Assembly (NCBI GenBank): GCA_945890035.1
Contig: CAMDCJ010000001.1
Location: 1-58,020, forward strand
Direction of reading: 5' to 3'
Source: Rickettsia typhi
Lineage (GTDB): Bacteria; Pseudomonadota; Alphaproteobacteria; Rickettsiales; UBA1997
DNA: 58,020 bases
The notes under the pieces are model-generated. The model searched no databases. It was not told the origin of the DNA and was given only the letters and a program-made list of their open reading frames with translations. Positions 24,807 to 26,947 of the stretch are shown here, in pieces. How positions within the stretch are numbered: position 1 is the first letter of the stretch; every line of letters starts with the position of its first letter. A program made the translations under genes and the position numbers.

Positions 24807-25862
24807 TTAAATTTCTTGAGCAATTTCTTGCAAAATTTTTTCGGGATTTCTAATTAATTTTTTCTCAATTAATTGATAAATATGTTTTTTAGAAATAAAA
24901 ATATTATTTCTTTTGAGTGTGGGATCTCGTCCTAGAGTTTCTAAATTAAAATCATAGAAATTATTTTTCTCTAAATTAAAAACCCCAAATATATTGTTTT
25001 CAATTTTAACATCAGAAATACATTCGATAAAAGTCTTAATTCTTTTATCAATAAGTTTAAAACTTCCTTCAATCTTAAATTTGCCGATATCTTCCTTTTC
25101 TGCGAAAACATTTTTTTTGATAGAAAGATTCATACTATCATTAAAATTAATAAACTCCTCAATCTTAACAACATCTTTTCTGAGTCCGTCTTTACTATAA
25201 AACGAACTACGATTTTTTAATTTAAAAATATTAGTCTCATACATATTCATTCCTCTTTCGAAATGGTATCCGAATTTTTCTAAATCATGAGATGATAAAA
25301 TAAATTCTATTTTGCATTCGGCATTTAGGTCGGCAAATTCTTGAAAAATTAAACTCTTACTTGTGTCTTCGATCTGTTTCAGAAACATTCCTGATAAATC
25401 AACTGTTTTGGGATTTTTATTAGTAATTGAAGAATTTATCGAAGCATAAATCATAAATATTTTTTTATCTTTAGAACTTCTTTTTATCGTATTAAATTGA
25501 TCTTCTGTAAGTCCAATCCATCGGTCATTCTCGGAAGTGTTTTTTATTTCTGTAAAAATATTAGGATTCCTATGTAGTTTATTTTCACTTATCGCAACAA
25601 TATCGGGTTCATTTTTTACTTTATTGTTATTTTTAATATCAAAATCTAATAAATATTTTTTTTCCTTATTTAAAATTGTTAATATTTTTTCTACACCAAT
25701 TTCAGCAAGCTTACCAATCGTAAATGAATCAAGGATTGCACCCAATCCCCTAGGCTCGCCACTGGTTCGACCAGTTGTGTTTTTTGTTGGTTCGATGTAA
25801 TAAGAAGTAGCAAATTCAAAAACTCTTTTAAAATCTTCAAATAAAAGTTTATAATGATTCAT
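24807..25862 (-). CDS. Putative type II restriction endonuclease (PD-(D/E)XK fold), partner of the adjacent C5 methyltransferase
   Basis: 351 aa. Candidate catalytic triad spacing is GKLAE(53)...EPD(87)IVAI-x17-TE(105)IK(107). The start codon overlaps the methyltransferase stop (ATGA at 25859-25862). I do not recognise a named family. Confidence 0.6.
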   Translation of the reverse strand: MNHYKLLFEDFKRVFEFATSYYIEPTKNTTGRTSGEPRGLGAILDSFTIGKLAEIGVEKILTILNKEKKYLLDFDIKNNNKVKNEPDIVAISENKLHRNPNIFTEIKNTSENDRWIGLTEDQFNTIKRSSKDKKIFMIYASINSSITNKNPKTVDLSGMFLKQIEDTSKSLIFQEFADLNAECKIEFILSSHDLEKFGYHFERGMNMYETNIFKLKNRSSFYSKDGLRKDVVKIEEFINFNDSMNLSIKKNVFAEKEDIGKFKIEGSFKLIDKRIKTFIECISDVKIENNIFGVFNLEKNNFYDFNLETLGRDPTLKRNNIFISKKHIYQLIEKKLIRNPEKILQEIAQEI

Positions 25863-26947
25863 GATTCGTTTACTCCGTCCAAAGCCAGCTTAATATTCAT
25901 CGCAATTCTCTCAACGACGGGGATTGCCACTGAATTGCCGAATTGCTTATACAAAGCTGAGTCGACGATTTTTGGCAATTTGTAATTCGCGGGAAAGCCT
26001 TGAAAATTAGCACATTCACGCGGGGTTAATTTTCTAATTCCTTTGTCGTCGAGAATAATCGGAACATTGTGCCCGCCCATGCCCATATTGGCGGTGAGAG
26101 TTGGGCAAGCCGAACTTTTATTTTCACGCACATATTTTCTACGCCATTGATAAAGAGTAAATTTTTTAGTCACATCGGTACTAATCCTTGAAAATAAAGG
26201 CTTGTCATTATAATAGTATTTATCGTCAACTTCTTTTTCGAGACAATCTTGAATGGTTTTTGTCAGAGAAATTTTGTTTGGAAAATTAAATTTTTCAAAG
26301 GAATTTTTATTTTTAAAAGCCACAATATAAATTCTTTCTCTATTTTGTGGAATATTGCCATAATCCAGGGCGTTCATGACTTTATCGCATACAAAATAGC
26401 CAAGATTTTCTAGTTCCGAATAAATAATTTTTATTGTTTCACCATTATCGTGACTTTTTAAATTTTTAACATTTTCAAGTAAAATTACTTGTGGTTTTTT
26501 ATCGGCGAGTATTCTAGTAATATCGAAAAAAACATTGCCCCTACCCTTCTCATCATTGAATCCCTGACGATAGCCAGCAATTGAAAATGGTTGACATGGA
26601 AATCCGCCAGCCAAAATATCGCAAGCAGGAATTTGTTGAGTTTGAATTGATGAAATATCACCAAGAAACATTTCGTGATTTTGATTTTGTAGAGAATTTT
26701 TCGAAGCGAAATTATAATCAAAAGTAATTTTACAATTTTTATCAAAATCGTTAGAGAAAACGCAATCGAATCCAGCATTTTCTAGGGCAATTTTAATGCC
26801 ACCGATGCCTGCAAATAGATCAATAAATGATGGCTTTAGTTTTAAAGAAATATTCTTTTTAATATTTTGCAAAGATTGAAAATTACTAAATAAATCAAGA
26901 TTTTCTTGATGAGTATTTTGGGTTTTAATTTTGGTGTTGGCTTTCAT
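25859..26947 (-). CDS. DNA (cytosine-5)-methyltransferase
   Basis: 362 aa with all canonical C5-MTase motifs: I FIDLFAGIGG, IV GGFPCQPFS, VI LLENVKNL, VIII QNRERIYIV, TRD TLTANMGMGGHN, X QFGNSVAIPV. Overall it is collinear with M.HhaI-type enzymes. The target sequence cannot be inferred. Confidence 0.93.
   Translation of the reverse strand: MKANTKIKTQNTHQENLDLFSNFQSLQNIKKNISLKLKPSFIDLFAGIGGIKIALENAGFDCVFSNDFDKNCKITFDYNFASKNSLQNQNHEMFLGDISSIQTQQIPACDILAGGFPCQPFSIAGYRQGFNDEKGRGNVFFDITRILADKKPQVILLENVKNLKSHDNGETIKIIYSELENLGYFVCDKVMNALDYGNIPQNRERIYIVAFKNKNSFEKFNFPNKISLTKTIQDCLEKEVDDKYYYNDKPLFSRISTDVTKKFTLYQWRRKYVRENKSSACPTLTANMGMGGHNVPIILDDKGIRKLTPRECANFQGFPANYKLPKIVDSALYKQFGNSVAIPVVERIAMNIKLALDGVNES

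Follow-up and report, generated by a model that had tools for sequence, protein, structure and literature searches.

Among restriction-modification (R-M) systems that read GCNGC or a subset of it, Bsp6I cuts GC^NGC and NgoFVII cuts GCSGC. Cac824I is likewise a GCNGC enzyme (PMC2817722), and M.Fnu4HI methylates the inner cytosine of GCNGC (PMC11347163, PMC4926085). The Bsp6I, Cac824I, and Fnu4HI systems are of Type IIP and combine a C5-cytosine methyltransferase with a single-chain endonuclease. The subject of this study is a two-gene cassette in a 58,020-nucleotide stretch of Rickettsia typhi DNA (assembly GCA_945890035.1, contig CAMDCJ010000001.1, positions 1 to 58,020 of the forward strand), hereafter called the window. 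The cassette encodes a 362-amino acid C5-cytosine DNA methyltransferase (M, or M362) and a 351-amino acid protein (R, or R351), and it is very probable from their sequences and gene neighborhoods that the two are a functional R-M pair. As a type of system this is ordinary, a Type II R-M operon of a C5 methyltransferase and a PD-(D/E)xK endonuclease.

The cassette resembles the Type IIP systems above in this gene content and in the site GCNGC, which here is a prediction. RE_Bsp6I genes found elsewhere adjoin methyltransferases that carry the target-recognition region (TRD) motif of M. R itself, however, is not homologous to the Bsp6I family: it has no PF09504 match, hhalign gives a probability of 0.3% (family profile against the L094 protein), and at 351 compared with ~185 amino acids it is twice as long, with an extra beta-rich domain. 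The NgoFVII system is similar to the window unit in that a methyltransferase with the same TRD adjoins an RE_NgoFVII_C gene, but R has no match to Pfam RE_NgoFVII, and GCWGC is depleted in the window besides GCSGC. Exact-match scans of genome contigs with the published primers for CAC1502 (Cac824I; PMC2817722) gave no match. The R family is undescribed in Pfam, NCBIfam, PADLOC, PHROGs, and PDB, and a characterized GCNGC enzyme such as R.Fnu4HI, R.Cac824I, R.BsoFI, or R.SatI may already belong to it.

Organization of the cassette

The elements of the cassette all lie on the minus strand, with M upstream of R:

25859-26947, minus strand: C5-cytosine DNA methyltransferase (M), 362 amino acids; open reading frame (ORF) read from the sequence
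24807-25862, minus strand: 351-amino acid protein (R); ORF read from the sequence, stop codon included
25859-25862, minus strand: ATGA, 4 nt in which the stop codon of M and the start codon of R overlap; read directly
25368-25862, minus strand: predicted N-terminal PD-(D/E)xK nuclease domain of R, residues ~1-165; from invariant residues and AlphaFold2 topology
24807-25355, minus strand: predicted C-terminal beta-rich domain of R with two terminal helices, residues ~170-351; from family conservation and AlphaFold2
26978-27011, minus strand: promoter-like leader; an invariant block at the left edge of the transferable unit

Both ORFs and the shared ATGA agree with the preliminary description of this DNA, which had been made from the sequence alone. 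A GGAG is found 10 nt ahead of the R ATG, and R would be translated from the M transcript by way of the overlapping start and stop codons. The overlap is not universal, since in loci L005 and L010 a 2-nt gap lies between M and R. The leader contains a -35 element TTTGCA (27005-27000), a 16-nt spacer, and a -10 element TATAAT (26983-26978). The block is invariant in seven loci with differing upstream genes (nth, hslU, and TauE), and similarity ends upstream of it. Promoter-consensus matches are no more frequent in this region than in shuffled sequence; it is the position and conservation of the leader that suggest it acts as a promoter.

Association of the two genes

A methyltransferase of the M type (49-94% identical) adjoins an R homologue in 20 of 21 loci, and it does so across phyla. 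Usually M precedes R on one strand, and a few bases separate the two genes. The hosts include Rickettsiales, Deianiraeaceae, Patescibacteria, Peribacteria, Saccharibacteria, Gracilibacteria, Vampirococcus, a metagenome-assembled genome (MAG) of Pseudomonadales, and single cells of marine Bacteroidetes. The exception is L097, where the C5 methyltransferase is a different one with 28% identity to M.

Some members also have accessory genes. In L093 the order is Vsr-M-R-HNH with Vsr adjoining M, and in L094 R lies beside an M-Vsr pair. A 67-amino acid HTH_3 ORF of the controller type (C-protein) is found directly upstream of R in L097 and L098; in L097 the HTH_3-R pair lies opposite the different C5 methyltransferase, with an integrase and a prohead protease nearby. 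Conserved pairing in unrelated genomes and accessory genes of the C-protein and Vsr kind are both marks of Type II R-M systems. Because true Vsr genes co-occur with the R family, a Vsr-like repair role for R is unlikely.

The ratio of nonsynonymous to synonymous divergence (dN/dS) against five relatives is 0.015-0.11 for R and 0.05-0.16 for M, so that both genes are under strong purifying selection. With ORFs that are intact in several strains, this selection, and the pairing in 20 of 21 loci, the earlier proposal of an intact Type II R-M cassette is supported.

The R protein

The preliminary description could not match R to any known restriction enzyme family, and this is borne out for the libraries searched: R has no match at threshold in Pfam, NCBIfam, PADLOC, PHROGs, or PDB sequences (E <= 0.01). 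The family alignment profile found nothing relevant among PDB sequences, and ten divergent family members found no known nuclease family in Pfam. Below threshold, R resembles NOV_C (PF13020; E 0.075, 13.6 bits against a cut-off of 22.1) and Card1_endonuc (E 0.056), so no curated family of the PD-(D/E)xK clan is matched significantly. A search of 5.8 billion clustered proteins gave 138 homologues, the majority full-length (~350 amino acids), and the family amounts to 199 clusters among 1.84 billion representatives at 50% identity, with no bridge to a larger family. A cluster look-up gave no name other than "hypothetical protein." Among the homologues, one member (P0046) is named a NO VEIN domain protein, and another, P0117, carries a precomputed PF13020 match.

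The assignment of R to the PD-(D/E)xK nucleases comes instead from its conserved residues and its modelled fold. The layout consists of E54, P86-D87, 17 residues, and E105-x-K107. In an alignment of 36 homologues E54, D87, E105, and K107 are invariant and P86 nearly so, which confirms the E...PD-x17-E-x-K motif reported from the single sequence. Conservation spans the whole length of the protein. Further invariant residues are the loop G31-R32-T33-x-x-E36-P37-R38-G39 (GRTxGEPRG), D45, K51, D73, and T109, together with G311, L316, R318, N320, and K325 in the C-terminal part, where R312, D313, and P314 are nearly invariant.

The AlphaFold2 model of R built with the family alignment has a predicted local distance difference test (pLDDT) of 91.3 and a predicted template modelling score (pTM) of 0.87. 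Its N-terminal core has the order alpha-beta-beta-beta-alpha-beta (helix 40-64, strands 68-72, 88-93, and 102-109, helix 120-129, and strand 134-143). In the model E54 lies on the long helix, D87 just ahead of strand 88-93, and E105-x-K107 on strand 102-109. The core thus has the catalytic D...ExK on strands 2 and 3, conserved in homologues, that defines the superfamily. The structure prediction proposed in the preliminary description therefore returned a nuclease core and not a non-nuclease fold. Foldseek matches the core locally to archaeal Hjc resolvases (2eo0_A, probability 0.96, root mean square deviation 3.5 A over 90 columns) and to the nuclease domain of SPARDA. Against BFVD it finds small phage nuclease-like proteins at probability 1.0, one of which is named a restriction endonuclease. 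The full R model and the C-terminal domain have no Foldseek match in PDB at E <= 1e-3, the local matches being to the core only. Invariant catalytic residues, modelled core, and local structural matches together uphold the earlier suggestion that R is a PD-(D/E)xK nuclease.

The type formed by Hjc, NOV_C (PF13020), and the Card1 nuclease has the same alpha-beta-beta-beta-alpha-beta core and E...D...ExK arrangement as R. Features found in R alone are the invariant loop GRTxGEPRG, which precedes the core, and a C-terminal domain of 180 residues; the scores of R against NOV_C and Card1 nuclease in Pfam also both fall short of threshold. The ~220 residues that had been left unassigned are indeed unrecognized, with no PDB fold match, but they are in fact a conserved and confidently folded domain. 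Modelled separately, the C-terminal domain reaches a pLDDT of 91.7 (AlphaFold2), while its best comparison with PDB folds has a probability of 0.12 and a TM-score below 0.25, which is no match. From the model, this part of R is a possible novel recognition domain and is presumed to serve DNA recognition and/or dimerization.

Several gene calls related to R are irregular. P0031 (463 amino acids) and P0095 (369 amino acids) are calls in which the C-terminal half of a methyltransferase is fused to an R protein, and many methyltransferases with the same TRD are called as halves (short fragments of 160-230 amino acids). Such calls may reflect UGA recoding in Gracilibacteria/Absconditabacteria hosts, or some may be true M-R fusions. 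The R homologue of one Rickettsiales MAG assembled from long reads (L114:4001-5052) lies in two frames with a break near residue 216, which either marks it as a pseudogene or reflects a sequencing error in a homopolymer. In L094, a 259-amino acid ORF without a Pfam match (L094:6629-7408) lies between the Bsp6I-family gene and the methyltransferase; it has a faint likeness to the N-terminal part of R351 (F-x-FA ... GK-x-AE-x-G, then D-x-VV ... NVKSTK) at an hhalign probability of 0.7%.

The methyltransferase and its predicted target

M matches PF00145 over profile positions 2-323 of 324 (E 5e-88, 296 bits against a cut-off of 22), TIGR00675 (dcm) at E 1e-92 (311 bits, cut-off 100.65), and PADLOC MTase_II at E 2e-117. 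The translation and the alignment with M.HhaI show motifs I (FAGIGG), IV (GFPCQPFS), VI (ENV), VIII (QNRER), IX (RKLTPRE), and X (GNSV). M is therefore full-length and above the curated cut-off, and its canonical C5 motifs are complete, as the preliminary description had claimed of the motifs. M.HhaI is its best solved relative (E 1.6e-64, residues 40-356).

The description of M as M.HhaI-like holds for the catalytic scaffold but not for specificity. M.HhaI (GCGC, PDB 1mht family) has all ten C5 motifs in the same order as M. In contrast, its TRD recognition loops are unconserved in the alignment, and M has ~38 additional N-terminal residues. The TRD motif of M, in the variable region, is YQWRRKYVRENKSSACPTLTANMGMGGHNVPII. 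An HhaI-like GCGC target was considered and rejected on the differing loops and on the frequency of GCGC in the window, which is close to expectation (174 observed, 189 expected), whereas GCNGC is avoided; the grouping of the TRD also places M outside the M.HhaI specificity group.

The predicted target of M is probably GCNGC, with methylation at cytosine C5. Three independent lines (partner enzymes, word counts in the window, and comparison of genomes) point to GCNGC and not to the GCGC of HhaI. With regard to partner enzymes, methyltransferases with the same TRD adjoin an RE_Bsp6I gene in L118 and an RE_NgoFVII_C gene in L117, and a Bsp6I-family gene lies within the same gene cluster in L094. 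Partners of R homologues have this motif in common even where their overall identity is 47-59%, and a search with the TRD half returned 1,483 clusters, far above the size of the R family.

Word statistics were calculated with maximal-order Markov expectations for the 58-kb window and for the fetched loci of relatives. GCNGC occurs 30 times in the window where 98 are expected (observed/expected, O/E, 0.31), and no other of the 256 abNcd patterns is as depleted: its z is -9.7 (both strands counted), and that of the next pattern is -5.5. All four GCNGC pentamers are within the six most depleted of 1,024. The O/E is 0.25 for GCSGC and 0.42 for GCWGC, and the cassette itself contains no GCNGC site.

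The comparison of genomes set loci with R against loci without it. Close relatives with the cassette have 20 GCNGC sites against 73 expected (O/E 0.27). In the pooled non-Rickettsiales hosts the count is 51 against 106 (O/E 0.48), and the pattern is the most depleted of 32 palindromic ones. Rickettsiales recJ loci at 52-75% RecJ identity and without R in the locus have 795 of an expected 874 (O/E 0.91). Taken singly, GCWGC and GCSGC both show depletion in the window, in close relatives, and in hosts outside the Rickettsiales; among the three other R-bearing Rickettsiales loci, GCWGC alone reaches significance, and in 11 R-free loci (52-67% RecJ identity) neither is depleted. Host genomes thus avoid GCNGC as they would the target of a Type II R-M system, and on balance GCNGC is the probable recognition site.

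Proposed mechanism

There is a good probability that the cassette as a whole is a self-contained Type II R-M operon of promoter-like leader, M, and R (~24807-27011) with GCNGC as its target. M would methylate cytosine C5 in the GCNGC sites of its own host, the inner cytosine being the candidate base by analogy with M.Fnu4HI only. R would act as a PD-(D/E)xK endonuclease with E54, D87, E105, and K107 as its catalytic residues, cutting incoming DNA with unmethylated GCNGC, and its GRTxGEPRG loop and C-terminal beta domain may read the site and/or form a dimer. The unit appears to have been acquired horizontally into a variable slot by recJ, and the R family seems to circulate mainly among uncultured bacteria with small genomes (Rickettsiales and the Patescibacteria, or candidate phyla radiation (CPR), lineages). 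What the analysis shows is the structure of the genes, their family relationships and conserved pairing, the invariant residues, the predicted fold, purifying selection, avoidance of GCNGC, and polymorphism in presence or absence; which site is recognized, that R cleaves, what the C-terminal domain does, and that the leader is a promoter are inferred from sequence and models.

A variable slot beside recJ

The cassette is bordered by the following features:

22139-23929, plus strand: recJ, the conserved flank of the variable slot; tblastn synteny, with Pfam DHH, DHHA1, and RecJ_OB in L001
23930-24806, no strand: repeat-rich spacer from recJ to the R stop codon, outside the conserved cassette
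27045-27677, minus strand: nth (endonuclease III, HhH-GPD), a housekeeping flank outside the cassette; synteny kept in L018

The nearest sequences found are all from uncultured MAGs or metagenome contigs of freshwater Rickettsiales. The closest is a JGI contig of 1,524,543 bp, with R and RecJ each 99% identical, and other near relatives are MAGs titled uncultured Alphaproteobacteria (Loc and KT bins) or Rickettsiales bacterium (ME and other bins). Similarity between copies of the cassette begins ~64 nt before the M ATG and, for copies in different contexts, stops at the R stop codon. The resulting unit of ~2.2 kb (~24807-27011) is found in three contexts: by nth (window, L001, L009, and L012), by TauE (L010 and L011), and between hslU and purB (L005-L008).

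Relatives without the cassette keep the flanks recJ-nth or recJ-TauE, and some have other genes between them. In L018 (RecJ 75% identical), recJ is followed by a 684-amino acid GmrSD Type IV restriction enzyme (L018:8842-10896; Pfam GmrSD_N 4e-36, GmrSD_C 5e-25) and then nth-murC. In L020 (RecJ 95%), recJ is followed by a 581-amino acid SLFN_AlbA_2/HATPase_c_4 protein (L020:9601-11346) and then TauE-PNP. In L031 and L045 the slot holds an aldehyde-dehydrogenase-type gene, an assignment checked against Pfam in L031 alone. Relaxed tblastn (E <= 1) recovered no trace of M or R from the cassette-free loci. Since the flanks are kept and other genes occupy the slot in relatives, the site next to recJ is a variable slot, frequently one for defence genes. 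By this comparison the cassette is acquired cargo of that slot, and the possibility raised earlier that it is an insertion between recJ and nth is supported. No recombinase, terminal repeat, or target duplication was seen. R had no match in plasmids (tblastn), the R family alignment found no relative in viral contigs, and PHROGs gave no match; these searches thus show no sign that phages or plasmids carry the family, the integrase and prohead protease beside L097 notwithstanding.

The preliminary description took host-like composition as a sign of long residence. M is host-like (GC 0.332), but R is markedly more AT-rich (GC 0.259; GC at third codon positions, GC3, 0.188) than its neighbors (GC 0.32-0.37, GC3 0.26-0.35). 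The synonymous divergence (dS) of the two genes is also discordant: against L009 it is 0.08 for R and 0.41 for M, and against L005 it is 0.79 for R and 0.51 for M. The discordance and the AT-rich R argue for recombination within the unit and against a simple long and quiet residence.

The gap to nth on the methylase side is 97 nt (26948-27044), as described previously. On the nuclease side the spacer to recJ is present and repeat-rich as described, but measures 877 nt (23930-24806) rather than 880. The palindromic repeats and the 10-nt array reported beside the nuclease gene were both recovered: the array, TAATCTCACA, has 4.1 copies at 24109-24149, and nested palindromic or inverted-repeat elements lie at 23928-24059 and 24269-24711. 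Further copies of the spacer elements occur in the window at 2366-3196, 47094-47480, and 51350-52113 (blastn). Two spacer ORFs, at 24405-24659 (plus strand, 84 amino acids) and 24656-24823 (minus strand, 55 amino acids), result from translating the GC-rich palindromic repeat (PHPNPLPAFGERVRVRG is an example) and are unlikely to be genes; the Rfam matches there are sub-threshold and of the microRNA-like hairpin kind. In the whole region 23500-27800, Rfam gave only hairpin-driven matches below gathering scores, and a tRNA scan found none.

Inclusion of nth in the cassette was considered and rejected. The Nth protein of the window is 30% identical to the L097 HhH-GPD protein and has no match to that of L094, and a 91%-identical Nth is present in the recJ...nth-murC arrangement of L018 without M or R. 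The HhH-GPD glycosylase genes of those two loci (L094:8958-9614 and L097:1846-2499) directly adjoin C5 methyltransferases and may encode T:G mismatch glycosylases that counter deamination of 5-methylcytosine. Beyond nth, the mechanical murC ORF (27621-29186, plus strand) begins at a TTG and overlaps nth by 57 nt; the start supported by homology is at ~27771 (471 amino acids align, and the call in L001 has 470). TauE and PNPase (window 36139-39402) lie ~9 kb from the cassette, and in L010 and L020 (RecJ 95% identical in these relatives) they directly adjoin the cassette and the slot, respectively. A ~9-kb block (nth-murC-GNAT-queA and beyond) is therefore rearranged relative to the slot within the clade.

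Alternative explanations

Several observations weigh against a GCNGC-specific R-M pair. No Pfam nuclease family reaches threshold for R, and L097 couples the R family with a C5 methyltransferase other than the M type. The case for the recognition site is made by association and word statistics. L018, L019, and L022 are partly depleted in GCNGC and have no R in the fetched 16 kb, which may mean that the system is elsewhere in those genomes or that the bias is older than the system, and L094 itself has no GCNGC depletion. A tblastn search of phages with the TRD found 18 phage methyltransferases, none of which was among the GCNGC-methylating enzymes of SPbeta and Phi3T. Strong depletion in the window extends to GGCC (41 observed, 115 expected), ACGT (17 and 53), and GTAC (14 and 37). 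The avoidance of words in this DNA therefore has more than a single cause, and restriction by other systems, now or formerly, or a bias of the whole lineage is suggested. For GGCC the depletion is found throughout the related Rickettsiales loci, with or without the cassette. A Type II R-M system with a target other than plain GCNGC, be it a subset (GCSGC or GCWGC), a longer site that contains GCNGC, or GCGC, would fit the NgoFVII-like (GCSGC) partner of one same-TRD methyltransferase, the somewhat stronger depletion of GCSGC than GCWGC in the window, and the position of M.HhaI as best solved relative. It is nevertheless improbable: GCWGC as well as GCSGC is significantly rarer than expected in the window, its close relatives, and unrelated hosts, GCNGC with its overall O/E of 0.3 leaves little room for flanking specificity, and GCGC meets the objections of frequency and recognition loops given above.

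The remaining alternatives concern what R does and why the unit persists. That R is not the cognate restriction enzyme, but a Vsr analogue or a methylation-dependent or unrelated nuclease beside an effectively orphan M, is very improbable. The absence of any family annotation for R and of a Vsr gene from the window cassette would suit it, as would the resemblance of the core to Holliday-junction resolvases, but true Vsr genes stand beside the family in L093 and L094, so that R is no substitute for Vsr, and in L097 a C-protein directly precedes R as it does restriction genes. The strict pairing of M and R and the avoidance of the target by hosts fit restriction, and a methyl-dependent R sharing its site with the neighboring methyltransferase would be lethal. 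There is equally little to expect from a decaying cassette in which R has lost its activity and M alone still counts, perhaps as an epigenetic regulator. Mobile genes often decay in reduced genomes and the L114 homologue is split, but that assembly is from long reads and the frameshift may be a sequencing error; the R of the window is full length with all invariant residues, and its dN/dS values are those of a gene under selection. A larger, though still minor, share of the probability belongs to the view that selfish addiction by post-segregational killing, and not defence against phages or plasmids, is what mainly keeps the unit in place, a role compatible with the same biochemistry. A compact, self-promoted unit that lacks its own recombinase and occurs in three chromosomal contexts, the recombination suggested by discordant M and R divergence, and the small host genome are in keeping with addiction, whereas the slot holds other defence-type genes in relatives (GmrSD and SLFN_AlbA_2) and the avoidance of GCNGC fits long-term restriction pressure.

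Implications

If the R-M operon with a GCNGC target is accepted, then the R family offers a working annotation for ~140-200 protein clusters publicly labelled "hypothetical protein," and the prediction that R cleaves at GCNGC and is blocked by G5mCNGC methylation (5mC, 5-methylcytosine) can be tested. R would then be a new protein scaffold for GCNGC specificity, and its C-terminal domain, confidently modelled and of unrecognized fold, is a target for structural work on DNA recognition. A wider reading joins these points and is tentative, with slightly less in its favor than against it: R would found a restriction endonuclease family undescribed in the libraries searched, its site read by a beta-rich domain whose fold is absent from solved structures, and would be a third non-homologous GCNGC cutter beside the Bsp6I and NgoFVII types. 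On this reading the family would circulate mainly among symbionts and epibionts with reduced genomes (Rickettsiales, Deianiraeaceae, and Patescibacteria/CPR), pointing to gene exchange between these lineages in lakes.

What is new, relative to the libraries searched, is the nuclease family and not the kind of system, which makes the finding of moderate interest to specialists in restriction enzymes and symbiont genomes and unsurprising in principle. For the organism, it indicates that a Rickettsiales lineage with a genome of 1.5 Mb keeps a variable defence slot by recJ, filled according to strain by an R-M unit, GmrSD, or a Schlafen-like gene. The lineage also has defence genes in common with CPR bacteria, and together these features bear on how much foreign DNA still reaches such reduced genomes.

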